From the IMG/VR virus record IMGVR_UViG_3300045747_000172: DNA of 64,000 nucleotides; one strand, written 5' to 3'. This DNA comes from an uncultured virus (IMG/VR IMGVR_UViG_3300045747_000172) (taxonomy: Duplodnaviria > Heunggongvirae > Uroviricota > Caudoviricetes). Position 1 is the stretch's first letter; each line of letters opens with the position of its first letter. Below the pieces are notes generated by a model. The model did no database searches, was not told where the DNA came from, and was given only the letters and a program-made list of their open reading frames with translations. Of the stretch, positions 2,036 through 43,976 are shown piece after piece. Made by a program: the position numbers and the translations under genes.

Positions 2036-2039
2036 GGCT

Positions 2040-2270
2040 TCAGCCCCACCGGTCGTAGACGACAGCACCATCCTTTTTCGACTGTTCAACCAGCAGACGA
2101 TGGACGTCCTCGTCTCCAGCCTTCATGACACAGTTGAAACACATCCAGGCAGTGCAGTACTGTGTCCGGTGTACTTCAGTGTCCCGGTCAGGGTTGCAGT
2201 TCGTCCAACCGAGTGAGCATCGACCGCGTTGGGTTTCAAGCTTCGCAGGTTCCCTTGGTTTGCGGGCCAT
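2040..2270 (-). CDS. Small Cys-rich hypothetical protein
   Basis: Strong RBS (AGGAGGT) before ATG at 2270; MARKPREP...C..C..CTAWMCFNC; fills the gap between the clamp and polymerase genes. Confidence 0.6.
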   Translation of the reverse strand: MARKPREPAKLETQRGRCSLGWTNCNPDRDTEVHRTQYCTAWMCFNCVMKAGDEDVHRLLVEQSKKDGAVVYDRWG

Positions 2271-5612: not shown

Positions 5613-5617
5613 AGGTC

Positions 5618-15878: not shown

Positions 15879-16023
15879 TCTTGATAAGCTGCTTGGCAGC
15901 CTCCTCGTAGTTCTCACGGCAGCCCCAGCACATGAACCGGCCGCCGTACTGAGTCATCGCGGGCTTGCCGCAGGGTGCAGGGCGATCCATGGGGTGCCCG
16001 CGCTCGTTGCACACCTTGCTCAC
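15847..16023 (-). CDS. Small putative zinc-binding protein (58 aa, below the ORF track cutoff)
   Basis: GTG overlaps the queE stop: MSKVCNERGHPMDRPAPCGKPAMTQYGGRFMCWGCRENY...PPRR. Confidence 0.5.
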   Translation of the reverse strand: MSKVCNERGHPMDRPAPCGKPAMTQYGGRFMCWGCRENYEEAAKQLIKNAPKKNPPRR

Positions 16024-23735: not shown

Positions 23736-23793
23736 CATCAACCCCGGGCAGCGTATGTATGCGCTGCCCATTCCTTTGTTCCAGGAGAACACC

Positions 23794-24330
23794 ATGACCA
23801 TCACACTCGCTGAACCCGACGCCCTGCCGCCGCTGCACAAGGCGATCTACAGCACCAAGACCTACCCCAACGACCGCGGCCTCTCGTGCTGCTTCCGCCA
23901 GTGGAGGGCTGAGAGCCACTGCCGCCTGCTGCACGGCTACAGCCTCGGCTTCAAGTTCACCTTCGCTGCCAATGCGGTGGATGAACGCGGCTGGGTGGTG
24001 GACTTCGGTGGCCTCAAGGACCTGTGGGCGCTGCTCGAGGGCCAGTTCGACCACGTGCTGCTCGTGGCGGAGGACGACCCCGCCCGTGCGTACCTCGAGG
24101 TCCTCGGCGGCCTGGGCATGCGCCACTCGCCCAACTTCGATGACGACAAGCGCATCCCACCGGCTGCCAAGGTGCTAATCGTGCCGGCCACGGGCTGCGA
24201 AGCCTTTGCCCGCATGGTCTATGACGCCACCGAGCAGTGGCTCAAGGACGCAGGCTTCTCGCCACGGTGCTGGCTGCACAGTGTCGAGGTCAGCGAACAC
24301 GGCGCCAACAGCGTCATCTGCTTCGGTTGA
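23794..24330 (+). CDS. queD: 6-carboxytetrahydropterin synthase (PTPS fold)
   Basis: SHCRLLHGYS, WVVDFG, FDH, GCEAFA and EHGANS. Confidence 0.88.
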   Translation: MTITLAEPDALPPLHKAIYSTKTYPNDRGLSCCFRQWRAESHCRLLHGYSLGFKFTFAANAVDERGWVVDFGGLKDLWALLEGQFDHVLLVAEDDPARAYLEVLGGLGMRHSPNFDDDKRIPPAAKVLIVPATGCEAFARMVYDATEQWLKDAGFSPRCWLHSVEVSEHGANSVICFG

Positions 24331-26773: not shown

Positions 26774-27289
26774 ATGGAACGTAAGCCACTGATACTGCCG
26801 AATCAGGTAACAGCTGATCTGCCGCCGCCTGTGAAGAGAGGCAGAGGAAGGCCCCTGGGCAGTAAGTCCAAGCGCACACTCGGCAACCGCAACATCGCCA
26901 AGGCGATTGAGAACGGTGAGCCACTGCCGCATGAGATCCTACTGCAGCTCGCACGTGGCAAGCCGGTACAGCAGTGGGTGCCGGATCTCGAGACCGGGGA
27001 ACTGAAGCCTAACCTGCTCGTGCCTGACATGGACGTCATCCGGGACTGTGCCAAGGCGGCGGCACCGTACTTCGCACCCAAGCTCAGTACCGTTGAAGTG
27101 ATCCAGGGAGTAGCCGATGACGATCTCGATAGCCTCATTACGAGCCTTGCCGCCGAAGCAGGCATTAGCCTTGGCCCTGATGGAGAAGGCGAGGAGGATG
27201 AAGAGGGAGAAGGAACGCCAGGCAGCCTCAGCACTGGCCAGGAACTCCTCGGTACTGGAATTCGCCGACGTACCGTCACTGGTACTTGA
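26774..27289 (+). CDS. Terminase small subunit
   Basis: RGRGRPLGSK, AKAAAPYFAPKL; directly upstream of the large subunit. Confidence 0.75.
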   Translation: MERKPLILPNQVTADLPPPVKRGRGRPLGSKSKRTLGNRNIAKAIENGEPLPHEILLQLARGKPVQQWVPDLETGELKPNLLVPDMDVIRDCAKAAAPYFAPKLSTVEVIQGVADDDLDSLITSLAAEAGISLGPDGEGEEDEEGEGTPGSLSTGQELLGTGIRRRTVTGT

Positions 27290-28535
27290 CCCGAACCACA
27301 AACTCCACCTACTGACGAAGCCGGCACCCTACAAGATCCTCTGGGGTGGCCGCTCCAGTACCAAGTCCTGGGGTGTTGCCGAACACCTGGTCCGCAAGCT
27401 CGCAGCTGGACCGTACCGCTGGCTGTGCACTCGGGAGTTCCAGATCAGCATCAAGGACAGTGCCCATCGCCTCCTAAAGGACACCATCACGCGGTTGGGC
27501 CTGGATCACTGGTTCGTGGTCACCAAGGACAACATCATCAGCCGTGCAGGCGGTGAGTTCATCTTCAAGGGCCTCCACAACAACGAACAGGGCATCCGGT
27601 CCACTGAGGGCCTCGACGGGGTGTGGGTCGAGGAAGGCCAGAGCGTGAGTGAGACCTCATGGCAGTCCCTACTGCCCACCATCCGCAAGGACGACTCGGA
27701 ACTGATCGTCACGTTCAACCTGATCGACGAAGACGACGCCACCTACCGCAGGTTCGTGCTCAACCCACCGACTGGCGCGGTGGTGATGAAGTTCACCTAC
27801 GAGGACAACCCGTACCTCAGCCAGCGCACGCTACAGGAGATCGAGGACGACAAGGCCCGTGACTTCCACCTGTACGAGCACATCTGGCTGGGCATGCCGC
27901 TGAAGATCACCGACGCGATCATCTTCAACCGCAAGTACGTGATCCGGGAGTTCGACGACGACATCTGGACCAAGTGGGAGCACCTGGGCACTCGACCGTT
28001 CTACGGGATGGACTTCGGGTTCAGCCAGGACCCATGCGCCCTGGAGCGGTACTTCCCTGTGGAGCACGACGACGACGGCAAGCGCCGCCTGTACGTCAGC
28101 CACGAGGCGTATGGCACTGGGGTCGAGCTCGACGAGATGCCCGAGTTCATGGACAGCGTACCGGGCGCCCGTGACTGGCCCATCCATGCGGACTCCAGCC
28201 GCCCCGAGACCATCAGCCACCTGCGCCGCAAGGGCTTCAACATCGCCGCCGCCGAGAAGTGGGAAGGCTGTGTCAAGGACGGCATCACCCACCTCAGGGG
28301 CTTTGATGAGATCGTCATCCACCCACGCTGCACTGGACTCGCCAAGGAGGCAAGACTCTACCGCTACAAGACCGATCCCAAGCAGCTGGACGACAAGGGC
28401 CAGCCCAAGGTACTGCCCATCATCATCGACGCCCACAACCACGCCTGGGACGCCATACGCTATGGCTTCGACGGCTACATAATGCGATCCGGGGCCCTCG
28501 GCACCTGGGTCAAACTCGGTCAACAACCTGGATAG
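27117..28535 (+). CDS. terL: Terminase large subunit (PBSX-like)
   Basis: GGRSSTKS, REFQISIKDS, WVEEG, GMDFGFSQDP and DAHNHAWDAIRY. Start codon uncertain (27117 or 27180). Confidence 0.95.
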   Translation: MTISIASLRALPPKQALALALMEKARRMKREKERQAASALARNSSVLEFADVPSLVLDPNHKLHLLTKPAPYKILWGGRSSTKSWGVAEHLVRKLAAGPYRWLCTREFQISIKDSAHRLLKDTITRLGLDHWFVVTKDNIISRAGGEFIFKGLHNNEQGIRSTEGLDGVWVEEGQSVSETSWQSLLPTIRKDDSELIVTFNLIDEDDATYRRFVLNPPTGAVVMKFTYEDNPYLSQRTLQEIEDDKARDFHLYEHIWLGMPLKITDAIIFNRKYVIREFDDDIWTKWEHLGTRPFYGMDFGFSQDPCALERYFPVEHDDDGKRRLYVSHEAYGTGVELDEMPEFMDSVPGARDWPIHADSSRPETISHLRRKGFNIAAAEKWEGCVKDGITHLRGFDEIVIHPRCTGLAKEARLYRYKTDPKQLDDKGQPKVLPIIIDAHNHAWDAIRYGFDGYIMRSGALGTWVKLGQQPG

Positions 28536-28541
28536 GACACC

Positions 28542-29963
28542 ATGAACCTCCTCAATCGACTCTCTCAGCGGCGCCTCCTGGTGCCATCCCGGATGCGCCG
28601 GGCCATGACCCATGACGGGCAGTTCATGCCCAAGCTCAACGCCGGAGGCACCGCCTGGCAAGACCAGGACTGGGAGGCAGCCGCAGCCGCTGAGATCTCG
28701 GCCAAGCGCAGCGCCACCCTGGCGGGTGATTCGATCATGGGCTACGGGGATAACACAGGCGCAGGCGGCAGCACGATCGGTGAGACCTCGCAGTCGCATG
28801 TGGCCTGGGCGAACTCTGCGATGCCCGGGACCGCCTTGAGCATCATTGCCAACCGGGGTGTGGGCGGTACGCTGATCGACGGTGCTGCTGTCAGCTCTCT
28901 GATTGGCTCCGGCGGGTCACCGCAACTGCCCCTGGCCGCCGTTGACAATTCCGACATCCTCTGGATCCACTCGGGCGTCAACCACTTGAACCCAACCATC
29001 GACGCGAGTGCACCCACTGTGGCGAAGATCGTGACGAAGTACCGCCGCCTGTTCGACCTTGCAGCGCCCATGAAGGGGCTTGTGTTCGTCGACGCCATTA
29101 CCCCCCTCAACGCAGCAGCCCTCACGCCCAGCGGCGCCGCAGCACGCCGCGCTGACATCCCGCTGATCAACAGCCAGATCGCGGCTCTGTGCGCCTCCTA
29201 CCGAAATGTCAAGTTCAATGACATCTACTCGCCCTTGGCTGTGGACCAGGCCGGGAACGCCAACCCCAACTACTTCACGCTCCTCAACGGCATCCACTTC
29301 ACCACGTGGGGCGCCCAGGTGGCAGGCATCGTATCAGCGGCCAACCTGCTGAAGTACCTACGCCCGGCTGCGGCCTACCGTGTGACCAAGACCATACTGA
29401 TGATGGACTTCACAGGCTCCGCGGGAACCAAGACTCCTGGGTCGGGCACGATCAACGGCAATGTCGCCACCAGCCTCGCCTTGACCATTGCGGCGGGCAC
29501 GGGTGTGGTCACCGCCAGCGTCGCTGACAACAAGCAGCGCCTGGTGATTGATAACAGCGCCGGGGGCGCCACCTGCACCGTGCAGCTGAACTTCAGCAAC
29601 ACGACCGCCTGGAACGGCACACTGGCAAATGGTGATGTGGTGCAGTCGTACACCAAGATCGAGTGTGCATCCCAGACTGGCATGCGGAGGTGCAACCCGA
29701 CGTTCATCCAGAACCCCGCCGGCACTCCAGTCACCGTGGACGGACTCTCGAGGAGCACCCAGGAACTCGTTGACTCCGGTGCGCAGGGTGTCGCGCTGCC
29801 GCTCTTCCCGCCCAGCTTCTCGGGCATCTTCCCCACCAGGCCCTTCACCCTCAACGCCGTGATCGCCTCGATCAACATTGCGGTAACCATTGAGGTCGCT
29901 GCCGGTGGGTCTGCCGATGTGCAGATTAGCGGATACGAAATCAACGGGCAAGTAGCGGTTTAA
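28542..29963 (+). CDS. SGNH/GDSL hydrolase with capsid-like leader and beta-rich C-terminal domain
   Basis: Blocks GDSI, NRGVGG, GVN and NGIHF; leader RLLVPSRMRRAMTHDG. Confidence 0.8.
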   Translation: MNLLNRLSQRRLLVPSRMRRAMTHDGQFMPKLNAGGTAWQDQDWEAAAAAEISAKRSATLAGDSIMGYGDNTGAGGSTIGETSQSHVAWANSAMPGTALSIIANRGVGGTLIDGAAVSSLIGSGGSPQLPLAAVDNSDILWIHSGVNHLNPTIDASAPTVAKIVTKYRRLFDLAAPMKGLVFVDAITPLNAAALTPSGAAARRADIPLINSQIAALCASYRNVKFNDIYSPLAVDQAGNANPNYFTLLNGIHFTTWGAQVAGIVSAANLLKYLRPAAAYRVTKTILMMDFTGSAGTKTPGSGTINGNVATSLALTIAAGTGVVTASVADNKQRLVIDNSAGGATCTVQLNFSNTTAWNGTLANGDVVQSYTKIECASQTGMRRCNPTFIQNPAGTPVTVDGLSRSTQELVDSGAQGVALPLFPPSFSGIFPTRPFTLNAVIASINIAVTIEVAAGGSADVQISGYEINGQVAV

Positions 29964-30532: not shown

Positions 30533-32578
30533 ATGGCCCGTCACATCCACATCCACTTCCTCCCTGCCCGAGTGAGGGACCAAGCCCTGGGGTCAGTACC
30601 AGCCGGCGACGACATGATGAAGCTGGTCAACGTGCTCATGCAGGCCATCGCGGACCGGCAGGGCATGACGCAGACCGCAGACGCCATGTTCCTGTTCACA
30701 GACCTCGCAGCAGCGGTGAAGACGCTCACGAGGGACGCCACCTACGTCGAGCAGGACCATCCGCGAGATGAGGGCGGCCGCTGGTCCGCAGGCGCACACC
30801 AGGCCGCGGCAGAAGCCCACGAGGGCATGGGCACGCCCGATCACCAAGAGGCAGCCGAGGCGCACCACGCTGCCGCCAAGCACATGACCTCGCAGACCGG
30901 CCTTGGTGCGCACATGAGCCAGGCCGCACAAGCCGCCTCGAAGAAGCTGGGCGGTGTGCCAAGTGCCCAGAACAACAGCATGGGCGCCGCGTACGGCAAG
31001 CTCAAGGCCATCGCCGCCGACCCCAGTGCCCCGGTCCTCAAGCGCAGCGAAGCCATCAAGCAACTCGGTGCCATCGAGAAGGCTGCCGGGGAAGTGGCAG
31101 AGAGCCCGCACGCGGTCGTGCCACCGAAGCCCGTCGCAGCAGGTCCCGCTGGCGCCCCAGGTGCACCGGCCGGTGGCAATGCGGTCGGGGCCAAGCCTAC
31201 CCAATCCACGGCCAAGGGTGCCAAGCCCGCGGTACACCAGTTGCTCAGCAGCGGACATCCGTTCAGCGTGGATGAACTGATGAAGGCGACAGGCGTCACG
31301 AACAAGGTGACGATCATGACCGCCTTGAGTGACCTGAAGAACCCGAAGTACGCCGGCCAGCTGGGTGCCCTCACGATCGAGAAGGGCGCGGACGGCATGT
31401 ACAAGGTCACGAAGGCGCCTGCTGGCGGATTCAAGGCGGTTGGCGCAGCGAATGCCCCCGCTGGCGCCGCGGGAGCCAATCAAGCCACTGCTGTCGGCGA
31501 TCCGACAGGTCCCATGGTCGGTGAGGCGGACCCGAACAAGGTCGTCCACGGCAGCCACCCACTCAGCGACTTCATGCCCGGCCAGATGCTCACTGCGAAG
31601 GGTGTCAAGGGCAACCAGTACAAGGTACTCGGCCACAACGACGCAGGTGGTGTCGTGGTCGAGGGCCCCGGCGGTGTCAAGCACAACATGGAGCCCTCGG
31701 CACTCAAGGCCGCAATGCAGCCGCCTGCTGCCAAGGCTGATCTGCCTGCTCAGCCTCCCGAGTCCGCCCACACTATCAAGGAAGCACCCTCGGCTGGCCT
31801 CAAAGACGGCCCGGGCACACCTGACCCTTCGATCAAGACCGCCACCACAAGCACCGAAGCCCGGTCCATGCGAGCGAAGGCCGTCGTCGCCTCCAAGGCC
31901 AAGGCCAAGCAGGACGCACGCAGCGCCGCCAACATCGCTGACCCCAGGTACGGGGCCACACCCGAGATGAAGGCTGCCCATGAGAGGGCGAAGGTGCACG
32001 CTGCCGAGCATGACGAGCAGGTTCGGGCAGCCACGGGTGCAGCCAAGCCTGGCCCAGCTGGTGGCTCTGCCCTGCCCTTGCGCGCCACGCCCAAGGGTGA
32101 CGTGAACCCGGTGCAGAACGTCCAGGCCCGCATCGACTCCAAGGCAGCAGGCAAGGGCCGCATCGACCGTGCACTCGGCAACCACTCCAGCACCTTCGTC
32201 GCCCAGGCACTCGGCCAGCCCAAGCCGGGCCCGGGGCAGACGCCCGCGGAGAAGGCTGTCGGCAAGACCAAGGTGGACGCGGCGCTGGGCAACCACTCGC
32301 AAGGCTTGGTCAAGAAGGCACTGGGCGCCAAGCCCGGCCCCGACGGCAAGCCCATGGGCACGCACCCAGCACTCGCCGCTGCACAGAAGGCCGTGGCTGC
32401 CAACCCACGCACCATGAATGTCGACCCCATCAGCCACCGCACCTCGATGGCCGGCGGTGTGCCGCACTCTAACACCTCGAAGATGACGCCTGAGCGCGCT
32501 GCTGCCAATGCGAAGCACATGGCCGGCCTCGAGGCGGCACGCACCCCCGCCGCCAAGAAGACGCCGGGAAAAGCCTGA
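30533..32578 (+). CDS. Large Ala/Pro/Lys-rich putative internal virion protein
   Basis: AGGAGG RBS; HIHIH, VRD, TRD and EQDHPRDEGGRW; C-terminal ALGNHS and KPGP repeats. Confidence 0.7.
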   Translation: MARHIHIHFLPARVRDQALGSVPAGDDMMKLVNVLMQAIADRQGMTQTADAMFLFTDLAAAVKTLTRDATYVEQDHPRDEGGRWSAGAHQAAAEAHEGMGTPDHQEAAEAHHAAAKHMTSQTGLGAHMSQAAQAASKKLGGVPSAQNNSMGAAYGKLKAIAADPSAPVLKRSEAIKQLGAIEKAAGEVAESPHAVVPPKPVAAGPAGAPGAPAGGNAVGAKPTQSTAKGAKPAVHQLLSSGHPFSVDELMKATGVTNKVTIMTALSDLKNPKYAGQLGALTIEKGADGMYKVTKAPAGGFKAVGAANAPAGAAGANQATAVGDPTGPMVGEADPNKVVHGSHPLSDFMPGQMLTAKGVKGNQYKVLGHNDAGGVVVEGPGGVKHNMEPSALKAAMQPPAAKADLPAQPPESAHTIKEAPSAGLKDGPGTPDPSIKTATTSTEARSMRAKAVVASKAKAKQDARSAANIADPRYGATPEMKAAHERAKVHAAEHDEQVRAATGAAKPGPAGGSALPLRATPKGDVNPVQNVQARIDSKAAGKGRIDRALGNHSSTFVAQALGQPKPGPGQTPAEKAVGKTKVDAALGNHSQGLVKKALGAKPGPDGKPMGTHPALAAAQKAVAANPRTMNVDPISHRTSMAGGVPHSNTSKMTPERAAANAKHMAGLEAARTPAAKKTPGKA

Positions 32579-32609
32579 CCCCTGCTGCACCGGCTCCAGC
32601 AGCAGGGGG
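32579..32609. terminator. Hairpin
   Basis: CCCCTGCTGC...GCAGCAGGGG immediately after the stop codon; no U-tract. Confidence 0.4.
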
Positions 32610-32616
32610 TGGACGA

Positions 32617-32874
32617 TTGAGTGATCTCAGCACCACTGAGATCTCGAGGCGCCTGAGTGAGAACTACTCCAAGCGCCCGAGTAGCGTGGCCAAGCGGTTC
32701 GGTTCCAACGGTCCCACGCCCGAACAGGCAGCGGCCTACAAGAAGGAAGTGAACGCCCACCAGAACGAACGGACCAAGCTCATGGCGGCGCACAAGGTAG
32801 CACTCGCCCGTTCGAACGCGGAGCACATGGCAGCCTATCACGCCAAGGGCCCGTCACCAGGCAACAGGAAGTAG
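32617..32874 (+). CDS. Small basic hypothetical protein
   Basis: 85 aa ORF (TTG start) filling the gap; resembles the A/K/H-rich helices of the upstream gene. Confidence 0.5.
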   Translation: MSDLSTTEISRRLSENYSKRPSSVAKRFGSNGPTPEQAAAYKKEVNAHQNERTKLMAAHKVALARSNAEHMAAYHAKGPSPGNRK

Positions 32875-32877
32875 GCC

Positions 32878-33849
32878 ATGGCGATCATCATCCACTACCA
32901 CCTCACCAAGGGCGTGCCCGTCGCACGCTACTCGGTCAGGGACGACGACACCTTCCGCGAGGCAGAGCACCCGCGTGAGCCCGACGGTCAGTTCGCGCCC
33001 AAGGGACAGGGCAGCACCACCAAGGCGCCGGCAGCACCCAAGGCCGCACCCAAGTGGACCAAGGCGGGAGGCGGTGACTTCACTCCCGCGGAGCATGCTC
33101 GCCTGCGTGCCCTGAAGGTGCCGCCTGCCTGGACCAGTGTCAAGCTCTACCCGGAGCACAGTGCGATCCAGGTCACCGGCGTGGACGTCAAGGGCCGCAC
33201 GCAGCGCAAGTACAGTGCGGAGCACAGTGAGAAGGCCGCTGCGGAGAAGTTCGCTCGCCTCAAGAGCTTCAACGCTGTCGTGGGCACCATCGTGACCAGC
33301 GCCAGCAGCGACATGAACAACAGCCGTCTGGCGCCCGTAACCCGGGATGCCGCCGCTGTTGTCAAGCTCATCGCACTCACGGGCTTCCGCATCGGATCAG
33401 AGCGCGATACAGGCGCTGACAAGCAGGCCTACGGTGCCAGCACATTGAAGCCCGAACACGTGAAGGTCAAGGGGAACGACATCACCTTCGCCTTCACCGG
33501 CAAGAAGGGTGTCGAGCAGGGCAAGACCATCACCGACGCTGGCCTGGCCAAGTACATCCGCAGCCGCCGGGGCCAGGAGAAGCTCTTCAACGCCAGCCCC
33601 ATGGCGATCCGCTCCTACCTCAAGTCACGCGGGGGCACGGAGTTCAAGCCCAAAGACTTCCGCACCTGGAACGGCACCAATGCGGCGCTCAAGGTCATCT
33701 CCACGATGCCTGTGCCCAAGAATGAGAAGGAGTTCGCCCGGCAGCGCCTCGAGGTCGGCAAGGCCGTGGCCAAGCACCTGGGCAACACCCCGATCGTGGC
33801 ACTCGCCGCGTACATCGACCCTGCCGTGTTCGGCCAATGGAGGCACTGA
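32878..33849 (+). CDS. DNA topoisomerase IB (bacterial/poxvirus type) with N-terminal leader
   Basis: VPPAW, GVDVKGRTQRKY, GFRIG, FTGKKG, KDFRTW, LGNTP and YIDP supply the R-K-R-N-Y catalytic set. Confidence 0.93.
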   Translation: MAIIIHYHLTKGVPVARYSVRDDDTFREAEHPREPDGQFAPKGQGSTTKAPAAPKAAPKWTKAGGGDFTPAEHARLRALKVPPAWTSVKLYPEHSAIQVTGVDVKGRTQRKYSAEHSEKAAAEKFARLKSFNAVVGTIVTSASSDMNNSRLAPVTRDAAAVVKLIALTGFRIGSERDTGADKQAYGASTLKPEHVKVKGNDITFAFTGKKGVEQGKTITDAGLAKYIRSRRGQEKLFNASPMAIRSYLKSRGGTEFKPKDFRTWNGTNAALKVISTMPVPKNEKEFARQRLEVGKAVAKHLGNTPIVALAAYIDPAVFGQWRH

Positions 33850-33850
33850 C

Positions 33851-34387
33851 ATGAACCAGGAAGACATCGCTCGCATGAACGCCTTCTTCGAGACCAACCA
33901 CTACGACGCTGATGGGGATGCCCACAGCGTCGCCGCTGCGTTTGACCCGGAGGATGACGAGCCCAAGACCCGGGCGGCGGGCATCGCGTACCACGACCCC
34001 GACGGTAACGTGCTGCTCGTCAAGCGGCACAGCAGTTCCAAGGACTACCCCGACCACTGGGCATTCCCGGGTGGGCACCTCGAGGAGGGCGAGACCGCCA
34101 AGCAGGCCGCCACACGCGAGACCCAGGAGGAGTGCGGGCACACGGTCCAGGACTGCCAGTGGATGCACGAGCACCACACCGACGACGGCGTGCACTTCAC
34201 GACGTTCAAGACCACCGGCCCTCGCTTCAAGCCCGTGCTCAACGAGGAGCACAGTGCGTTCACCTGGGCCAGCCCAAGCGCCATGCCATCGCCGCTGCAT
34301 CCCGGCGTACCGGCCGCGCTCGACGCTGACCCGGAGGAAGAGGACGGCGAGGGCAATCAACCCGACATCTGCGCTTGCAAGCACTAG
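33851..34387 (+). CDS. NUDIX hydrolase
   Basis: Nudix box PGGHLEEGETAKQAATRETQEECG. Confidence 0.92.
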   Translation: MNQEDIARMNAFFETNHYDADGDAHSVAAAFDPEDDEPKTRAAGIAYHDPDGNVLLVKRHSSSKDYPDHWAFPGGHLEEGETAKQAATRETQEECGHTVQDCQWMHEHHTDDGVHFTTFKTTGPRFKPVLNEEHSAFTWASPSAMPSPLHPGVPAALDADPEEEDGEGNQPDICACKH

Positions 34388-35218: not shown

Positions 35219-36619
35219 ATGGCTTCGGTTCAGTATCCGCAAACCGACCTCCCCAGGGGGGTAAGCGGTGGTGCGGACAAGTGGGACGATGCAGCGGGCG
35301 CCATCATCGCCCTCGACTTTTTCGCCGTCGTCGCGGGCGGTGACACCTCAGTTTCTGTAGCAGACTCAGGTGCAGCGTCGAGCGCCATCACTGTCGCCGT
35401 CTCGCTGAGTGTCACAGCAGACACCGGCACAGGCACCGACAGCACCTCTGGCGCAGTCGCATTGGCACTCGCGGATGTAAGCACCGCTACGATCGAAGCA
35501 CTGGCGGTTGCAGCCGCCACAGCCCTGGCAGACACAGGCGCCGCCACAAGCACCATCGCAGCCACCATCGCCGCCGCCTTGAGTGATGCGGGTGTAGGTG
35601 CCGATGCCATTGCGGTGATCGTCGCCCTGGCGCTCTCGGACACCGGAACAGGGACTGACGCAAGCTCCAGCCTGATCGGGGCAAGCCTCACGGACACAGG
35701 CACCGGTACCGATGCGCTGTCAGCACTCGGCGTCTCAGTGCCCCTGGCGGACACAGGCACTGGAGCTGACGCCATTGCAGTGGCAGCAGCACTGGCCCTC
35801 GCTGACACAGGCACCGGCACAGACGCGAGCAGCAGCCTCATTGGTGCGAGTCTGTCGGATACAGGCACTGGCGCAAGCACCGTGGTGGCCAATGTCGCCT
35901 TCACCCTCGCGGACACGGCAGTAGGTGCTGATGCACTGACCATCGCGGTTGCAGCCAGCGTGGCTGAGACGGGTGCCGGTGCCGACACGATCATCTCCGC
36001 GCTAGGGGCGGTGTTGGCGGATGCAGGGTCTGGGCTGGACTCTGTCACCATCAATGTCGCGCTGAGCCTATCTGACGCCGTTACGGGCGCGGATTCAACC
36101 ACCCCCGCCGTCGCGATCGCGCTGACTGACACGGGCGTGGGTGCAAGTGCACTCGCCGCTGGCGGCACTGTCATCCTCGCCGACACAGGCACTGGGGTTG
36201 ACTCACTCAGCACTGCGGTGTCTGTGCTGCTGGCAGACCTGGCGTCCAGCCTGGACACGCTGGACGTGGCGGGATCTAACGCCAAGTCCGCTGCTGACAC
36301 TGGTACAGGCTCCGATACAATTGCGGTCACGGTCCGAGTCAATCTGACTGACACAGGCTCAAGCACAAGCGCACTGCAGTCACCCACTGTGCGCTTGACG
36401 GTGAGTGATGCGGGCACGGGTGCCACGCTACTGTCCAGGTCGGTACGGCTCGAACTGATCGGCATCAACTTCGCACTCACCCAACGCACAGCCACCTTCT
36501 CAACAGCCGCGAGATCAGTGGCGCTTTCCTGCACCCAACGCACAGGCACCTTCTCAACAGCCGCGAGATCGGCTAGGCTCGCACTGGCCTCGCGGTCAGT
36601 CTCTTTCATCCTCCACTAG
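35219..36619 (+). CDS. Repetitive fibre-like protein
   Basis: Many L[AST]DTGTG[TA]D-type repeats with a period of about 19 aa. Confidence 0.7.
   Translation: MASVQYPQTDLPRGVSGGADKWDDAAGAIIALDFFAVVAGGDTSVSVADSGAASSAITVAVSLSVTADTGTGTDSTSGAVALALADVSTATIEALAVAAATALADTGAATSTIAATIAAALSDAGVGADAIAVIVALALSDTGTGTDASSSLIGASLTDTGTGTDALSALGVSVPLADTGTGADAIAVAAALALADTGTGTDASSSLIGASLSDTGTGASTVVANVAFTLADTAVGADALTIAVAASVAETGAGADTIISALGAVLADAGSGLDSVTINVALSLSDAVTGADSTTPAVAIALTDTGVGASALAAGGTVILADTGTGVDSLSTAVSVLLADLASSLDTLDVAGSNAKSAADTGTGSDTIAVTVRVNLTDTGSSTSALQSPTVRLTVSDAGTGATLLSRSVRLELIGINFALTQRTATFSTAARSVALSCTQRTGTFSTAARSARLALASRSVSFILH
36478..36570 (+). repeat. 39 bp near-perfect direct repeat (1 mismatch, period 54 bp)
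   Basis: CACCCAACGCACAG(C/G)CACCTTCTCAACAGCCGCGAGATC at 36478 and 36532. Confidence 0.85.
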
Positions 36620-37102: not shown

Positions 37103-37423
37103 ATGGCTGCTGTCAACTCAGGCAGCGCGTGCTGGGTCACCATCGCCCTGCTCGACCGCTTCGGCAACGCAGGGGTCCCGACGGCGGCCCAGTACCGCAT
37201 TGACTGCCTCACCTCGGGGACGTCAGTGCTCGGCTGGACCAACTTCCCCAGCCTCGCTGCCTCGGTTGACATCGAGGTCACCGCTGCACAGAACGTCATC
37301 GTCAACGCCAGTCACCCCCAGGAGACCAAGCGCATGACGATCAAGGCGCAGTACAGCGGTGACGCGAGTGACCAGATCACCGGGCACGTGGAATGGCCCG
37401 TCCTCGCACATCAATTCACCTAG
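37103..37423 (+). CDS. Hypothetical protein
   Basis: 106 aa ORF in the operon. Confidence 0.6.
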   Translation: MAAVNSGSACWVTIALLDRFGNAGVPTAAQYRIDCLTSGTSVLGWTNFPSLAASVDIEVTAAQNVIVNASHPQETKRMTIKAQYSGDASDQITGHVEWPVLAHQFT

Positions 37424-37430
37424 GGCGATC

Positions 37431-39086
37431 ATGGCACGCAAGGTATCCGTCAAGTCCGCTCGCAACGACCTGATCCGTGAGGAGAAGCGGACCCTCGACA
37501 CGATCAGGAAGAACCACGTAGGCGGGGACGGCAAGCCGCTGGTGGGTGCGGTCACCACTGACTCCTTCCAGAACCTCCAGCACCGCCTGGGCATCGGTGG
37601 CGACAATGCCCTGAGCAGTGGCAGCTACGGGTTCAACCCGATCACGCGCAACCGCACGCTGCTCGAATGGATCCACCGTGGGTCCTGGATCGGGGGCATC
37701 GCGGTGGACACGGTCGCGGACGACATGACCCGGGAGGGCATCGACTACGTGAGCGAGATGCGGCCCGAGGACCAGACCCGGCTCGACCGCACCATGACCG
37801 GCCTCAACACCTGGCCGAGCGTGAACGAGGTCATCCGCTGGGGACGCCTGTACGGTGGCTGCCTGGGCGTGGTGCTGGTGGACGGGCAGGACATGCGCAC
37901 GCCGCTCCGCCTCGAGACTGTCGGCCAGGGTCAGTACAAGGGCCTGCTCGTACTCGACCGGTGGATGGTCGAACCGACGCTAGAAGACCTCGTGACAGAC
38001 CTTGGGCCGCATCTGGGCCTGCCAAGTTACTACCGCGTGAGTTACAACGCCCCTGCGCTGCGTGGGGCGGTCGTACACCACACTCGCATCGCCTTCCGTC
38101 ACGTCGGCCTCGAGCTGCCCTACAACCAGCGCCTCATGGAGAACCTGTGGGGCATCAGTGTGCTGGAGCGGCTCTATGACCGCATGGTCATGTTCGACAG
38201 CGCCACCACCGGCGCTGGACAGCTCGTCTACAAGGCCTACCTCCGCACGCTCAAGATCAAGGGCCTACGCGACATCGTATCCGCTGGTGGGCAGGCCATG
38301 AACGGCCTCGCACAGTACGCTGACACCATGCGCCGCTTCCAGACCCTGGAAGGCCTCACCATGATCGACGGTGAGGATGAACTGGAGATGCAGTCCCACA
38401 CCGCCTTCAGCGGCCTGGGTGACGCCCTGATCCAGTTCGGCCAGCAGATCAGTGGTGCCCTGCAGATCCCACTCATCCGCATGTTCGGTCAGAGCCCTGC
38501 CGGCCTGAACAGCACCGGGGAGAGTGACCTGCGGATGTACTACGATGGCATCAACCAGCAGCAGGAGAAGAACATCCTCCACGGCACCACGCTGATCTAC
38601 AAGCTGGGCGCCCGGAGCATCGGGGTACAGCTACCGCCTGACTTCGCGGTCAAGTTCAAGAGCCTCTGGAAGCTCACCGACGTTGACAAGAGCAGCGTCT
38701 CCAAGAGCACGGGAGACGCGGTCCAGGCGGCGTACGAAGGTGGCCTGGTGGGCAGGCAAACCGCACTCAAGGAACTGCGCCAGAGCAGTCGCGTGACAGG
38801 CATCTGGACGAACATCACCCAGGACATGATCGAGGCGGCGGATGACGAGCCTCAAGTGCCTGGTGCCGAGGACATGCTGAGCAGCCTGGTGGGTGGCGGC
38901 GGTGATAACGAAGGAGCCTCGCATGGCGCGTTTGGATCGGAAGGGGAAAAGAGCCCGCTGGACAATGGCCCTCGCGAGCGAAAGCCGCTACAACTCCCAA
39001 CTGCGGGCGGTAGCCCGCCAAGTGGGGGTGATAGTCAAGGGGCTGGCGCCGGACGGGCACCTGAGCGCCGTCCCACGACTGCTTGA
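37431..39086 (+). CDS. Portal protein (DUF1073/HI1409-like)
   Basis: ADDMTREG, WGRLYGG, WGISVL, IPLIRMFGQSPAGLNSTGESD..YYD. Confidence 0.9.
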   Translation: MARKVSVKSARNDLIREEKRTLDTIRKNHVGGDGKPLVGAVTTDSFQNLQHRLGIGGDNALSSGSYGFNPITRNRTLLEWIHRGSWIGGIAVDTVADDMTREGIDYVSEMRPEDQTRLDRTMTGLNTWPSVNEVIRWGRLYGGCLGVVLVDGQDMRTPLRLETVGQGQYKGLLVLDRWMVEPTLEDLVTDLGPHLGLPSYYRVSYNAPALRGAVVHHTRIAFRHVGLELPYNQRLMENLWGISVLERLYDRMVMFDSATTGAGQLVYKAYLRTLKIKGLRDIVSAGGQAMNGLAQYADTMRRFQTLEGLTMIDGEDELEMQSHTAFSGLGDALIQFGQQISGALQIPLIRMFGQSPAGLNSTGESDLRMYYDGINQQQEKNILHGTTLIYKLGARSIGVQLPPDFAVKFKSLWKLTDVDKSSVSKSTGDAVQAAYEGGLVGRQTALKELRQSSRVTGIWTNITQDMIEAADDEPQVPGAEDMLSSLVGGGGDNEGASHGAFGSEGEKSPLDNGPRERKPLQLPTAGGSPPSGGDSQGAGAGRAPERRPTTA

Positions 39087-39672
39087 AGCCTTGAACCAGT
39101 ACGCCTCCTATATCGAGCCCTGGGCGAACGCGGTGGCGTCGTTCATGCTAGCTGACGTGGCACGGAAAGACGGTGCCATGTGGAAGCGGCACTCGAAGGA
39201 CATGGCAGTGGCGCTACGCCAGGAGCTCCTCAACGCTCCCACGGGTCACGTGCTCCGCGAGCTCCAGGCCGAGCAGGTGGAGTTGATCCAGTCCATCCCG
39301 ACCGCCGCCGCCGAGCGCATACAAGGGTTCGCGCTCGAGGCTACAATAACCGGGAAACGCGCCACCGAGATCGCAAAGGACATCCTCGCCAGTGAGCAGG
39401 TCAGCACAGCCAAGGCGGCACTGATCGCCCGCACTGAGGTGGCCCGAGCGGCGAACAACCTGGTCCAGGCCCGCGCTGTCTACGCAGGGAGCGATGGCTA
39501 CATCTGGAGAACGTCGGGCGATGCCAACGTCCGGCCAAGCCACGAGGAAATGGAAGGCAAGTACGTGAGGTGGTCATCGCCACCGACTCTCGACAACCTC
39601 AAGGGCCATGCTGGGTGCCTGCCTAACTGCAGGTGCTTCGCGGAACCCGTCTTCCCCAACGACGACATCTAA
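38923..39672 (+). CDS. Head morphogenesis protein (SPP1 gp7/MuF-like)
   Basis: IARTE, YIWRTSGDANVRPSH and PNCRC. Confidence 0.9.
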   Translation: MARLDRKGKRARWTMALASESRYNSQLRAVARQVGVIVKGLAPDGHLSAVPRLLEALNQYASYIEPWANAVASFMLADVARKDGAMWKRHSKDMAVALRQELLNAPTGHVLRELQAEQVELIQSIPTAAAERIQGFALEATITGKRATEIAKDILASEQVSTAKAALIARTEVARAANNLVQARAVYAGSDGYIWRTSGDANVRPSHEEMEGKYVRWSSPPTLDNLKGHAGCLPNCRCFAEPVFPNDDI

Positions 39673-39682: not shown

Positions 39683-41764
39683 ATGAACCTCACCACCAAA
39701 TTCATCCAGCGTTTCCGTCGCCTGCTGCCCTCGCGGCTGGAGCGGGCGATGACGCATGACGTGAACGCGTCAGGCCTGCCCGCCATCTACCAGGACATCA
39801 AGTACCTGCAGGATCTGGGTTACTTGCCCTCCAAGGCGCAGATGGTAGCCTTGTCGTCGACCATCTCCCTCACGAAGAATGACCAGGCAGCCGCGGCCGC
39901 CAACCTGACCGCGTTGCAGGCGGCACTGGATGCAGGGGGTCTGGTGTCGCTGGTCGGCTCAGGGACAGCGTACCTCAGCGCCACCCCCCTCATCAACAGC
40001 GACACCACGCTCAGGGTGGCGGCCGGGCTCAGGCTGAAGTCGGTTGACGGCACGCACATGAACCTGCTGGCCGCCAAGTACCAGGACAGCCCGAAGGTCA
40101 CGCTGACGAACTGGACGGTGGGCGCTGACATCCAGGCCAGCGGCTCAGGCAACCTCGTCATCATCACCTGGGACACGTCGGCAGCTCATGGCTGGTCGGT
40201 CGGTGATTACATCCTCATCAAGGGCGACACGACCGACCAGTACGTCGGTGGGCACAAGGTCTACGCCGTGCCCAGCACTACCCAGGTGTCAATTCTGATG
40301 CCCGCGGCCCTAGTCACCTCGGGCTACAACATCGCCATCCCGGCACCGGCAGGCACCGTTACTGCTCAGCAGTGCATCAATAACGTGGTCATCGAGGGTG
40401 GTATCTGGGACGCCAACGGGCCGAACCGACCCGTGAGTGGCGGCGACTCCTACCTGGCGTTTGCCATCCAGCTGAACAAGGTCACGAACCTCACCATCAA
40501 GGACGTCTCGGTATTTGACGCCAGCAAGTACGCCCTTGCCCTGACCAATTGCTTTGGTGTGCTGGTGGACACACCAACCTTCCGGTCCGCCTCGGACGGC
40601 TTGCACTTGCAAGGCCCTTGCCGCAACGTCGTGGCGCGCAACCTGCGGGGCCTGTGCTACGACGACATCTTCAGCTACACGGCGACGAATGAAGGGTACC
40701 TGCAGTACAACTTCCCGGGCTACGTCAGCAGCGCCAGCCCTGGCCTGTGGGATCAGGATGGCGAGCTCATCAACTGCACCATCGAGGGTGTGAACACGCA
40801 GCGGCAAAACTTCCGCATGTTCTTCGGGCCCAAGAGCGGCTTCAGGATGGCGGGTGTCACCATCCGTGACTACAAGCCCAACTACGCACAGAGCACGGAC
40901 AACATCGTCGTCAGCAGTGAGGTCGCCACGCTCGCCACGGTCGAGGACTTCACGATCATCGGTGCCAATGGCGCGTCCCATGCCACTGGTGGCCGCCTGA
41001 TGTCGTTCGGCAAGGGCGGTGCATCCTCCAACACCTACATCAAGAACCTGACAATCCAGAACCTGATCATCGCCAACATGGACGGCGACGTGATGGCGAA
41101 CGAAGCCCAGATCGACTTCCTGACAGTCAAGGACTGCGACATCAACATTGACACGACGGCCGCTGCCGCACGGTACCTGATCAACTCAGGACCGACCGCT
41201 GCGAGAACGATCAAGCGCGTGATGTTCGACAACGTGCGTCTCCGCCGTTCTGCAGGCACTCAGGCAGTCACGTTCTTCGCCGGGAACACCAACCTGACGA
41301 TCAACGAGGTAGTGTTCGACCGCTGCTGCTTTGGCGCCGGGACAGGCGGCATTGCCGGTGCCTTCGCCAACGGTCCGACGATCAGGTACCAAGGCTGCAC
41401 GAACGACGGTGGCACGCCATTCGGCATGGGTACGCTGACTGCCCCAGTCACGGTCATCATGGATGACATGCTGCAGATCAGTGCCGCGGCGGGTGGGCTG
41501 CTCAACCTGTTCGCGGCCACGGGCACGTACAACCTGTACCTGTCGCGCCTGAAGATCCTGGCTGGCAACTTCGTCGTCAACAACACGTCAGCCAGCACCA
41601 AGAACCTGTTCATCGGCGACGGCACGGTGGCGATGGACTTCTCGACGCTGACCGGGTTCGCGCCGCAGAACGGGGCGATCTTCTACAACACTGGGGCCGC
41701 CTACAGCGTGGGCATCGGCTTGTACGCCAAGGCGGCTGGCGGCGTGACGCGGATCGCAGCCTGA
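39683..41764 (+). CDS. Parallel beta-helix (pectin-lyase-like) protein with capsid-like leader
   Basis: NLTALQAALD, IEGGIWDANG, SDGLHLQG and DD motifs; HGWSVGDYI insert; leader RLLPSRLERAMTHD. Confidence 0.75.
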   Translation: MNLTTKFIQRFRRLLPSRLERAMTHDVNASGLPAIYQDIKYLQDLGYLPSKAQMVALSSTISLTKNDQAAAAANLTALQAALDAGGLVSLVGSGTAYLSATPLINSDTTLRVAAGLRLKSVDGTHMNLLAAKYQDSPKVTLTNWTVGADIQASGSGNLVIITWDTSAAHGWSVGDYILIKGDTTDQYVGGHKVYAVPSTTQVSILMPAALVTSGYNIAIPAPAGTVTAQQCINNVVIEGGIWDANGPNRPVSGGDSYLAFAIQLNKVTNLTIKDVSVFDASKYALALTNCFGVLVDTPTFRSASDGLHLQGPCRNVVARNLRGLCYDDIFSYTATNEGYLQYNFPGYVSSASPGLWDQDGELINCTIEGVNTQRQNFRMFFGPKSGFRMAGVTIRDYKPNYAQSTDNIVVSSEVATLATVEDFTIIGANGASHATGGRLMSFGKGGASSNTYIKNLTIQNLIIANMDGDVMANEAQIDFLTVKDCDINIDTTAAAARYLINSGPTAARTIKRVMFDNVRLRRSAGTQAVTFFAGNTNLTINEVVFDRCCFGAGTGGIAGAFANGPTIRYQGCTNDGGTPFGMGTLTAPVTVIMDDMLQISAAAGGLLNLFAATGTYNLYLSRLKILAGNFVVNNTSASTKNLFIGDGTVAMDFSTLTGFAPQNGAIFYNTGAAYSVGIGLYAKAAGGVTRIAA

Positions 41765-41766
41765 CC

Positions 41767-43302
41767 ATGCTGCTCGTCAACTCTCTACTCAGGAGGATCC
41801 TGGCCATGAAGCGCCACCGCACACTCGACCGTGGGGACATCCCGGTGTTTACCACGGAGAAGATCGGACCCAAGCGGTCCATGACGCCGGAAGGCTTCAT
41901 GTTCTGCGAGGACGTGCCCATCGCTCGCACGGGCATGATGCACTACGGGCCCAAGGAGACGCCCATCGACACCGGACCCGACGGTGTCGCCTACGTCACC
42001 CGTGATGCCTCCGCCCTGTTCGCTCGGGACACTCTGGCAAGCTTCAACGGCAAGCCGGTGGTGAACGATCACCCGGATGTTGACGTGAACCCTGACAACT
42101 GGCAGAAGTTGGCAGTGGGTGTGTGCATGAACGTCCGCCGCGGTACCGGGGCTGACGAAGACGTGATTCTCGCCGACTTGTTGCTGACCGACAAGCAGGC
42201 GATCAGGGATGTCAAGGCTGACAAGCGGGAGGTGAGTGCCGGCTACGAGGCCGACTACGAACAACTCGAACCAGGCCGCGGCAGGCAAGCCAATATAATT
42301 GGCAACCACATTGCGCTGGTCGACAGAGGTCGCTGTGGCCCGCGTTGTGCAATCGGCGACCATCAACTGGAGAGTACCACGATGACCAAGGCGACCCAAA
42401 CGCAAACGCGTGAGCGTCGCCCACTCCCCGAAGCGGTCCGGAAGCTGTTCCGGGACTTTGCCGAGGAGCTGGGCAACAACCCCGCAGTGATCCCCGAGGA
42501 CACTGGCGGCAGCACTGACGGCTACGTCCCCGAGGGCGGCCCGACCGAGACCTCCAGTGGCGGCGGCGGTGACACGCACATCCACATCCACGCGCCGGGT
42601 GCCGGTGGTGCTGCTCCCGCCGCCCCGGACGGCGTCACGGACGACGGCACGATGACGCAGGATGACCCGAACGCCGGGGGTGACCCCATCGAGCAGCGGC
42701 TGGCCGCACTCGAGGCAGCGGTCGGACAGATCATGGCCATGCTCTCGGGTGGCGATGACCAGGGCGGTGACGAGGGCGCTCCTCCCACCGGTGACGAGGA
42801 CAGTGGCGGAGGTGACGTCGATGAGACCCCACCGCCTGACGACAACCCCACGAAGGACCACGCGATGACCACAGACAGCGCAGCCCTCGAGACGGCCTTC
42901 ACCTCAGTGGTGGCCGACGCCGAGATCCTCGTCCCCGGCTTCCGCATCCCGACGTTCGATGCGAAGGTGACGCGCAAGGTGACCATGGACACCATGTGCG
43001 CGCTGCGCAAGCGGGTCCTCGAGCACCTGATGACCACGCAGGACGGCTCGCAACTGGTCACCAGCGTCAACGATGGTGCCCTGTTCGACGCCCAGGGCGC
43101 GGACTGTGCAGCAGCCGCGGTGGTCTTCCGCGCTGCGGCCGGGGCCAAGAAGGCGATCAACAACTCCAAGTTGACCGCCGACAAGCGCCCGCAGCCCGTG
43201 GTGCCGTTGGGTGCCGGCCCCGTGGGCAAGATCACGAGCCTCGCCCAGCTGAACGCCCTGTACGCCGACCTCAACGCCAAGGCGTCGACCGGCTCCAAGT
43301 AA
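41767..43302 (+). CDS. Prohead protease/scaffold (DUF2213-like)
   Basis: TPEGF..CEDVPIARTG, SFNGKPVVNDHP, EVSAGY, NHIALVDRGRCGPRC; acidic scaffold-like C-terminus. Confidence 0.9.
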   Translation: MLLVNSLLRRILAMKRHRTLDRGDIPVFTTEKIGPKRSMTPEGFMFCEDVPIARTGMMHYGPKETPIDTGPDGVAYVTRDASALFARDTLASFNGKPVVNDHPDVDVNPDNWQKLAVGVCMNVRRGTGADEDVILADLLLTDKQAIRDVKADKREVSAGYEADYEQLEPGRGRQANIIGNHIALVDRGRCGPRCAIGDHQLESTTMTKATQTQTRERRPLPEAVRKLFRDFAEELGNNPAVIPEDTGGSTDGYVPEGGPTETSSGGGGDTHIHIHAPGAGGAAPAAPDGVTDDGTMTQDDPNAGGDPIEQRLAALEAAVGQIMAMLSGGDDQGGDEGAPPTGDEDSGGGDVDETPPPDDNPTKDHAMTTDSAALETAFTSVVADAEILVPGFRIPTFDAKVTRKVTMDTMCALRKRVLEHLMTTQDGSQLVTSVNDGALFDAQGADCAAAAVVFRAAAGAKKAINNSKLTADKRPQPVVPLGAGPVGKITSLAQLNALYADLNAKASTGSK

Positions 43303-43331: not shown

Positions 43332-43976
43332 ATGAAGACGAACCTGGGCTACAAGGCCCGCCTCCTGCTCTCGGCAACGGCCAGCCTGTTGTCGGGCCTG
43401 GCCGAACTGGCCGCCGCGGCGCTGCTCCTGGGCCCCATGCCCGGCCGCTCCTTCACCAAGGACGTCGCGTTCACGTTCCGCATGGCGACCGGCTTCCCCG
43501 GCGATGTGAACCGCACGCACCCGTTCTCGATCCTGCCCGGCCTGATCAGCGCCACCCAAGTGCCCCGTCGCTACGGTGACCCGTGCCTGTTCGATGCCGC
43601 CAACGGCTATCGCGGCATCATCACCGGTGACCAGAGCGCGACCGCAGTGGCCATCGCCGGTGCGATCGTCCGCGCATACCCGACGCAGCAGTCCTCGGGC
43701 GGCATGTCCGCGAGCATCGGTGCCGCAACCCCGCCCACCAGCGGCGTCGCGGACTTCCTGCGCGAAGGCTACATGATGGTCCAGCTGCCTGCCGGACAGA
43801 CGGTCATCAAGGGCCAGGCGGTCTGGATCTGGGCAGTGGCCACCAGCGGCGCGCACATCCAGGGCGGCTTCGAGTCGCTGGTCAGCGCGGGTAACACCGT
43901 GCCGGTCAGCAACGCTCGCTTCACCGGCCCCCCGGATGCCACCGGCATCACCGAGATCGAAATCTGGACGGCCTAA
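43332..43976 (+). CDS. Capsid decoration/cement protein
   Basis: Between the protease and the major capsid gene; RMATGFPGDVNR and LREGYMMV. Confidence 0.75.
   Translation: MKTNLGYKARLLLSATASLLSGLAELAAAALLLGPMPGRSFTKDVAFTFRMATGFPGDVNRTHPFSILPGLISATQVPRRYGDPCLFDAANGYRGIITGDQSATAVAIAGAIVRAYPTQQSSGGMSASIGAATPPTSGVADFLREGYMMVQLPAGQTVIKGQAVWIWAVATSGAHIQGGFESLVSAGNTVPVSNARFTGPPDATGITEIEIWTA

Follow-up and report, generated by a model that had tools for sequence, protein, structure and literature searches.

A candidate capsid-targeting leader on a type IB topoisomerase and its neighbor in an uncultured tailed phage

Why a tailed phage should keep a DNA topoisomerase among its head genes is the question raised by IMG/VR virus record IMGVR_UViG_3300045747_000172, a stretch of 64,000 nucleotides from an uncultured member of the Caudoviricetes that is referred to here, at its full length, as the window. 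The contig behind the record is ~71 kb long. Its plus strand encodes a type IB topoisomerase (TopIB) of 323 residues (32878-33849, from the list of open reading frames (ORFs) and Pfam) and, upstream of it, a 681-residue protein (30533-32578, from the ORF list), both of which open with a short leader. The TopIB gene sits between the terminase gene (27117-28535) and the portal (37359-39086) and MuF genes, and the opposite strand carries, within 1-17 kb, the replication genes (family A polymerase, beta clamp, SNF2 and DnaB-like helicases, and 5'-3' exonuclease); this agrees with the preliminary description of the locus, made from the letters alone, in which the gene was assigned to the late head module rather than to the replication genes. 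That description also proposed that a targeting signal loads both proteins into the head. We assign a probability of roughly 55% to the reading that TopIB and the 681-residue protein are head cargo with a disordered, cleavable, three-motif leader akin to the capsid-targeting sequence (CTS) of phage T4, on the evidence of sequences, structural models, and analogy.

The topoisomerase, its neighbor, and their leaders

Judged by its profile matches and structural model, the 323-residue protein is an intact and apparently active type IB topoisomerase. Pfam family PF01028 matched residues 119-307 (E 4.7e-21; 75.6 bits, cut-off 23.7) and PF21338, the bacterial TopIB N-domain, matched residues 70-103 (29.4 bits, cut-off 27), which gives a layout of a disordered leader (residues 1 to ~60), an N-domain (70-103), and a catalytic core (119-307); by Pfam the chain is a single-enzyme protein and does not hold several unrelated effector domains. 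Residues R171, K209, R262, N303, and Y312 are invariant in an alignment of 23 homologs and were aligned by phmmer with positions 137, 174, 239, 280, and 289 of the Deinococcus radiodurans TopIB 2f4q, which we take to be the catalytic residues of that enzyme; the initial impression of intact catalytic residues was thereby borne out. An AlphaFold2 (AF2) model built with the 23 homologs had a mean predicted local distance difference test (pLDDT) score of 80. Its best Foldseek matches were the D. radiodurans TopIB structures 3m4a_A (E 7.5e-16) and 2f4q (3.8e-15), and variola TopIB was also among the matches (3igc_A; template modeling (TM) score 0.65). The phmmer alignment paired query residues 64-321 with residues 29-298 of 2f4q (E 4.6e-32, ~30% identity), and residues 1-32 and 40-55 of the model had pLDDT values below 50. 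Because confidence is low there and the alignment with 2f4q starts at residue 64, the first ~60 residues are read as an added disordered leader, in keeping with the earlier expectation that alignment with a cellular TopIB would mark them as specific to the phage. The window enzyme has the two-domain fold and the R-K-R-N-Y catalytic set in common with bacterial and poxvirus TopIB (2f4q/3m4a; variola/vaccinia) but differs from the cellular enzymes in its leader of ~60 residues, for which the cellular enzyme has no counterpart, and in the location of its gene in a tailed-phage head module.

Both genes and their motifs, all on the plus strand, were found as first described. The start codons are preceded by Shine-Dalgarno sequences, AGGAGG 4 nt upstream of the ATG at 30533 and AGGAAG 6 nt upstream of the ATG at 32878. 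In the 681-residue protein, which begins M-A-R-H-I-H-I-H-F, the H-I-H-I-H tag occupies residues 4-8 (30542-30556) and is followed by a first [TV]-x-D, V-R-D, at residues 14-16 (30572-30580) and a second, T-R-D, at residues 66-68 (30728-30736), 7 residues ahead of the HPR core H-P-R-D-E-G-G-R-W (30758-30784). The TopIB leader has at residues 6-8 an H-Y-H (32893-32901), a weak form of the H-x-H-x-H tag, at residues 20-22 a V-R-D (32935-32943), a variant of [TV]-x-D and candidate cleavage site for the prohead protease, and then the HPR core H-P-R-E-P-D-G-Q-F (32968-32994). A six-frame regex scan of the window for HPR[DE]..G.[FW] returned exactly these two sites, 32968-32994 and 30758-30784. In the long plus-strand frames of the late region, H.H.H was found only at 30542-30556 and, within the gene of the prohead protease-scaffold, at 42577-42591. 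Nine ORF rows open with M-(<=10 aa)-H-x-H, and only TopIB and the 681-residue protein were judged to be coding-strand genes with the first start. The V-R-D string, at first singled out as a motif in its own right, is indeed present in both leaders, but it is a variant of the [TV]-x-D pattern common to the capsid, cement, and protease leaders.

Residues E28, H31, P32, R33, G37, and F39 of the TopIB leader are invariant in the 23 aligned homologs. The two HPR copies in the window use different synonymous codons (CAT/CAC, CGA/CGT), and the conservation is therefore of protein and not of a DNA repeat; an origin of the motifs as a DNA repeat was ruled out on this ground. No Pfam family matched the window leaders at E <= 10, and the only PHROGs matches of the leader were to the junction regions of the portal-fusion families phrog_30637 and phrog_15528.

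The 681-residue protein is basic (pI 9.7), free of cysteine, and rich in Ala, Gly, and Pro. It has no Pfam or PHROG family, no phage-database match, and no usable match in the ESM Atlas (TM <= 0.23). The tag is a family trait: 11 of 19 homologs open with an H-I-H-I-[HYF]-type tag followed by R-x-T-R-D (R-V-R-D in one), and the homologs keep the arrangement of the second [TV]-x-D ahead of the HPR core. In the public database and in the ESM Atlas alike, the protein starts at M28 and so lacks the tag (30533-30613), and the same miscalled start recurs in homologs P0391, P0392, P0394, and P0403; the leader-bearing start of this family is thus often missed, and the annotation is corrected here. Cysteine is absent from the 681-residue protein, from an 85-residue ORF that follows it, and from TopIB, and all three are basic (pI 9.7-10.2).

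Distribution of the three leader motifs

A homolog search with TopIB gave 5264 proteins at E <= 0.001 among 8000 scored, 120 of which were listed. An H-x-H(-x-H) within the first 25 residues was present in 24 of the 120 listed homologs, mostly among the 31 best-scoring (one, P0093, resembles chance), and a motif of the [HQ]PR..G.[FW] type in 49. All tagged N-termini encountered were then pooled, giving 67 distinct sequences for comparison with control windows. A [TV].D followed within 28 residues of the tag in 60 of the 67, at a median distance of 5, as against 15% of control windows; for T.D the corresponding values were 47 of 67 and 7%. The HPR motif fell inside the first 110 residues in 53 of these N-termini, and the typical leader reads M-A-K-H-I-H-I-H-x-H-R-x-x-T-[KR]-D-A-G-x-W-E-E-S-K-H-P-R-x-x-x-G-x-F-G-S-G-G-G.

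The proteins behind the tag are diverse. When 17 tagged proteins were scanned with Pfam, one was an ADP-ribosyltransferase (ART; PF03496, E 1.2e-24), one was a TopIB, and 15 had no significant family; tagged ARTs include those of L127 and P0284 (PF03496), and tagged TopIBs those of L146 and the window. Relatives of TopIB are also fused to InPase (PF18823), NUDIX, ART, and portal modules. The portal-TopIB fusion is P0117, and in the NUDIX-TopIB fusions P0006 and P0026 the NUDIX domain is joined to TopIB via the HPR motif. Chains with multiple effectors among the relatives are P0003, P0006, P0013, P0034, P0090, P0117, P0244, and P0246, and NUDIX is fused to the portal in others (phrog_15528). 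In locus L050 (2017-4023), a portal is fused via an acidic linker to a domain that by eye resembles InPase, with H-L-H-V-H exactly at the joint, and the TopIB gene downstream of this fusion carries a tag of its own.

Among cultured phages, the nearest is Edwardsiella phage vB_EpM_ZHS (OM621816.1, 71,070 bp), whose major capsid protein (MCP) is 66.8% identical over 93% of the query. It has T-H-V-H-I-H in its DUF2213 protein, and its cement protein and MCP each contain R-A-R-T-R-D. Its ZHS_5 gene (OM621816.1 2727-3071), annotated as a 'putative portal protein', encodes a 114-residue protein whose leader is complete (tag, T-Q-D, and HPR), together with a small C-terminal motif, A-D-F-x-Y-L-K-x-K-G-Y...W-D-R-D, that is common to other tagged proteins.

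The HPR motif is widely distributed. Around the TopIB relatives of 84 loci it occurred 72 times on the strand of TopIB and 4 times on the other, several times inside giant ORFs. At E <= 1e-3, a leader profile of 38 positions built from ten leaders matched 2142 representative proteins, of which 277 had E <= 1e-10. The best 150 contained 149 new proteins: 20 were small (81-712 residues) with the whole leader at residue 1, and the others were chains of up to 7334 residues with up to 17 regex HPR sites and no N-terminal histidine tag. Successive HPR motifs were spaced by a median of 261 residues (n = 298). The logo of 437 sites (numerals are percentages) reads [W54/F38]-D-E92-S-K-H97-P98-R100-D-E-D-G100-K-F88/W12, followed by G-S-G-G-G. 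From its sequence pattern, [WF]xExxHPRxxxGx[FW] is a header that stands generally and widely before the modules of phage polyvalent head proteins. The proposed tie between the HPR motif and this particular protease family was accordingly given up, since T-x-D stands just upstream at only 42 of the 437 sites and the giant proteins lack an N-terminal H-x-H-x-H. The original notion of the leader as one targeting signal holds in that the leader fronts unrelated proteins, but the leader is made of three elements with differing distributions.

Pfam scans of 26 proteins found with the leader profile showed ART-PolyVal, a portal with a later ART, a portal followed by a full leader, and a chain of NUDIX, GNAT, histidine phosphatase, and DUF2213. 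The profile retrieved P0241 (ART-PolyVal, PF18760), which has 7 regex HPR sites and 9 profile stretches, and P0357, where the full leader is situated after the portal domain. In P0244 (1584 residues), HPR headers separate NUDIX, GNAT, histidine phosphatase, and, at the C-terminus, a DUF2213 protease domain, a case of cargo fused to the protease.

The second occurrence of the histidine tag in the late region is in the DUF2213 prohead protease-scaffold, a 511-residue protein (41767-43302, plus strand; PF09979, E 5.8e-53; head maturation protease in PHROGs). Its AF2 model shows a protease domain at residues ~31-190, a disordered linker, a helix at 307-327, and a helical C-domain at 371-509, and the best Foldseek match of the protease fold, a weak one, was the T4 gp21 protease 5jbl (E 0.011, prob 0.97); herpesvirus proteases came next. 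The T-H-I-H-I-H that had been reported near 42570 was confirmed, with H-I-H-I-H at 42577-42591 (residues 271-275) in the Gly/Asp-rich linker. Among the 120 protease-scaffold homologs listed, 118 have H-x-H-x-[HY] in the linker and the remaining 2 have H-I-H; its position ranges over residues ~207-295, or 150 for one truncated entry, and its flanks are rich in Gly, Asp, and Glu. In an alignment of 45 sequences, H271 and H273 do not vary, and at least 90% of the sequences keep H275. A nested scaffold gene starting at this motif was considered and rejected as a general explanation, most homologs having D-[ST]-H there and no start codon.

In 80 related viral loci, the five-residue tag pattern, with a start codon within 8 codons upstream, opened 23 ORFs on the plus strand and none on the minus strand. 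Of these 23, five are fragments of the protease gene; the remainder are distinct genes, spread over 16 loci. Counted over 82 loci including the window, the scaffold motif and a tagged gene were both present in 18, the scaffold motif alone in 31, and neither in 33; a tagged gene without the scaffold motif was found in 0.

The middle element, [TV]-x-D, is likely to be a maturation cleavage site, because homologs of the cement protein and the protease that lack a leader begin just after the motif. In the window protease, the leader closes with T-L-D (41821-41829, plus strand; residues 19-21), where T19 is at least 90% conserved and D21 invariant, and homologs without the leader start directly at F-Y-T-T-E-K-[IL]-G-P-K, the opening segment of the protease domain. 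The protease-scaffold has a second T-x-D, in which T368 is at least 90% conserved and D370 and S371 are invariant in the 45-sequence alignment. The cement (decoration) protein (43332-43976, plus strand; PF23982 and PF22758) has a 44-residue leader closed by T-K-D (43455-43463). A leader ending in T-x-D and followed by V-A-F-x-Y-R-M was present in 22 of 61 distinct cement homologs, and many of the others are leaderless and open with M-(x)-A-F-x-Y-R-M exactly past the T-x-D point. The MCP (44015-45178, plus strand), encoded downstream of the cement gene, has a ~29-residue leader closed by T-H-D (44093-44101), which ends at residue 29. T[RKLHMN]D, typically as R-A-R-T-R-D, was found upstream of the conserved MCP core in 50 of 54 distinct N-termini from related loci, five without an anchor having been dropped beforehand.

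A proposed loading route and its alternatives

If TopIB and the 681-residue protein are head cargo, their leaders could act as follows. The N-terminal H-x-H-x-H, copying the linker motif of the scaffold, would recruit the cargo to the scaffold core during assembly, through pairing with the scaffold strand or through a receptor that tag and scaffold both bind. The DUF2213 prohead protease, which is T4 gp21-like, would then cut at [TV]-x-D, a motif found again in the scaffold linkers, and remove the tag after assembly, and the HPR header with its glycine-rich linker would become the new N-terminus of the mature cargo. Mature TopIB would be retained inside the capsid together with the DNA and would pass into the cell alongside it; the adjacent NUDIX enzyme may likewise be carried and delivered. 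After entry, TopIB might relax incoming or host DNA or act jointly with NUDIX.

A conserved CTS loads diverse internal proteins of T4 into the scaffolding core (PMC3012670). As with the T4 CTS (IPI-IPIII, Alt), a short conserved N-terminal leader is found here on otherwise unrelated cargo, and the fold of the window protease is nearest, if weakly, to gp21. The T4 leader ends at the cutting motif of the gp21 prohead protease, which is used on capsid and scaffold proteins too. Unlike in T4, the sequence and the protease family are others (DUF2213, with Asp as candidate P1 residue and Thr or Val at P3), the tag copies a motif of the scaffold protein, and a third element, the HPR header, would remain on the mature protein. 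A precedent for the cargo is found elsewhere: poxviruses carry TopIB inside the virion, and among packaged TopIBs this may be the nearest parallel in function. If the reading is correct, a tailed phage resembles poxviruses in sending a DNA-relaxing enzyme into the cell together with its genome. Our literature searches (TopIB/bacteriophage/virion and polyvalent proteins), whose coverage did not extend to subscription journals, found no case of a phage delivering a virion TopIB.

Polyvalent proteins are a further point of comparison. In the account of Iyer et al. 2017 (PMC5512222), their effector modules (ART-PolyVal, InPase, NUDIX, GNAT) occur in linkage with MuF, portal, or protease genes, and the prediction is that they accompany the DNA. 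Such chains contain as many as 17 HPR headers, and TopIB relatives join InPase, ART, and portal modules, but in the window the modules are split into separate genes with individual leaders. A term search of the main text of PMC5512222 found 'topoisomerase' in the reference list only and 'HPR' nowhere, and the H-x-H-x-H and T-x-D elements lie outside the description given there. Likewise, our literature search on HxHxH and HPR strings, DUF2213, and vB_EpM_ZHS, again with subscription journals outside its coverage, found no description of these motifs.

The capsid proteins invite comparison with those of XM1, E217, and Pam3. The window cement protein matches Pfam families named for XM1 gp53, the decoration protein of that phage, and for E217 gp24/Pam3 gp6; for the MCP, the profile match was to a single solved chain, 8hdt_A, titled 'Major capsid'. 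In the XM1 map, the first 30 residues of the MCP are missing, for which the authors suggest cleavage (PMC10457771). For the related phage Pa193, PMC11456595 reports that a helix-turn-helix of the putative scaffolding protein gp24 (residues 286-326) stays under the 5-fold vertices and that an unassigned trimer of ~16 residues lies under the hexons. No H-x-H-x-H motif, T-x-D site, or tagged cargo is described in the consulted passages of these two papers (PMC11456595, PMC10457771).

Several results weigh against the loading route. The tag of the window TopIB is itself degenerate, with H-Y-H in place of the full pattern and V-R-D instead of T-x-D, and the NUDIX neighbor lacks a leader. The AF2 monomer places the scaffold H-x-H-x-H in a low-confidence linker just before helix 307-327, docked on nothing. 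T-x-D follows within 40 residues of the scaffold H-x-H-x-H in only 51% of 119 homologs, as compared with 25% of shuffled sequences. Cement proteins act on the capsid exterior, which makes cutting of their leader by an internal protease awkward, and the motif could instead be a binding element. As for the 31 loci that have the scaffold motif and no tagged ORF, many are truncated, and they are therefore weak evidence either way. The association of scaffold motif and tagged cargo is inseparable from common descent: the state of the scaffold motif changes 8 times on a FastTree phylogeny, and with no more than 2 independent pairs on supported branches the sign test (p = 1) has no power, so that we make no claim of co-evolution. 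Finally, a literature search found no paper on a virion proteome of vB_EpM_ZHS.

A narrower claim within the proposed reading is that H-x-H-x-H and [TV]-x-D together make up a new class of capsid-targeting propeptide, working by mimicry of the scaffold strand (through strand pairing or a histidine/metal bridge) and cut by the DUF2213 protease after Asp. This claim we put forward tentatively, as the odds appear to us to be somewhat against it. If true, the cutting specificity of the widespread DUF2213 prohead proteases would be after Asp with Thr or Val at P3, which would also explain the leaders of the capsid and cement proteins. A large, mostly uncultured group of myophages would then possess a simple, portable address for arbitrary enzymes (TopIB, ADP-ribosyltransferases, NUDIX-linked modules).

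Were the loading route correct, the loading rules of tag, cut site, and header would be readable from sequence, so that cargo could be predicted in metagenomic phages, and a short peptide would be at hand for putting foreign proteins into capsids outside the T4 system. The cultured relative vB_EpM_ZHS makes the leader model testable.

The gene position and the scaffold mimicry could also be understood if TopIB docked transiently on the prohead, portal, or scaffold, relieved the torsion of packaging or concatemer processing, and left with the scaffold fragments. A gene between terminase and portal would suit this function, a tag that mimics a scaffold motif would take the enzyme to a structure that is normally expelled, and cleavage of the tag would free it. 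We nevertheless consider such docking unlikely, since the covalent fusions of TopIB to the portal and to polyvalent chains with ART, InPase, and NUDIX favor stable residence, and since the same tag is borne by ARTs and by many small proteins unrelated to DNA topology.

The wide occurrence of the HPR header admits another explanation, which we rate as a little less probable again: the motifs would be inert junctions from the shuffling of polyvalent modules, and TopIB an ordinary late cytoplasmic enzyme whose position reflects co-transcription only. HPR motifs do lie at module borders ahead of Gly-rich linkers, the modules occur in many orders and fusions, and no binding partner emerged. The near-invariance of the header over 437 sites (H 97%, P 98%, R 100%, G 100%, F/W 100%) argues for selection on the peptide itself, as do the differing synonymous codons of the two window copies. 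An inert junction is also at odds with an H-x-H-x-H that is held at residues 3-8 of standalone proteins and in 118 of the 120 listed scaffolds, and with leadered and leaderless forms of cement protein and protease that differ exactly at T-x-D.

The least probable proposal is that H-x-H-x-H is a recognition or cleavage element of the prohead protease, or a metal-binding switch, with the N-terminal copies as fusion relics; it would account for the motif exactly at the portal-InPase joint of L050, between the two functional halves of the protease-scaffold, and within the full leader that follows the portal domain in P0357, but a relic would not persist at residues 3-8 in 67 distinct N-termini on unrelated cargo, and the borders of the dispensable MCP, cement, and protease leaders are marked by T-x-D and not by H-x-H-x-H.

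Neighboring genes and other features of the window

The late region runs on the plus strand in the order terminase large subunit (27117-28535), 473-residue protein, 123-residue protein, 681-residue protein, 85-residue basic ORF, 323-residue TopIB, and NUDIX, and continues with four proteins without a Pfam family, the portal, the MuF-like protein, a 693-residue protein, the protease-scaffold, the cement protein, and the MCP. The NUDIX hydrolase (178 residues, 33851-34387; PF00293, E 4.1e-19; portal-fusion family phrog_15528) begins 1 nt past the TopIB stop codon and is acidic (pI 4.7) with 4 cysteines. The portal (PF06381) and MuF-like minor head protein (PF04233) together occupy 37359-39672, the portal gene itself being 37359-39086.

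Two further proteins have leaders closing with T-H-D, the 473-residue protein (28542-29963, plus strand), located between the terminase and the 123-residue protein, and the 693-residue protein (39683-41764, plus strand), which gave a weak tail-spike match in PHROGs. An N-terminal motif in the former was judged by eye to resemble GDS-type esterases. Both have the same amphipathic leader of ~25 residues, with the ending A-M-T-H-D, as the MCP and the protease. Such a leader is odd on enzymes that resemble polysaccharide-degrading tail or neck proteins, and both may pass through the prohead. The 466-residue protein at 35219-36619 (plus strand) is acidic (pI 4.1), has no family, and is made up of many near-repeats of an Ala/Asp/Thr/Gly-rich unit (A-D-T-G-T-G-x-D); it may be a head fiber or decoration protein.

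Among the replication genes are a QueF-like gene (5079-5738) and one for GTP cyclohydrolase I (5618-6733), both on the minus strand, and the same set includes a radical-SAM (QueE-like) gene at 16020-16832 (minus strand) and a PTPS (QueD-like) gene at 23755-24330 (plus strand); this set suggests 7-deazaguanine modification of the phage DNA. The family A DNA polymerase fragment at 2-2089 (minus strand) has an N-terminal domain of the uracil-DNA-glycosylase superfamily (PF03167, E 1.5e-6).

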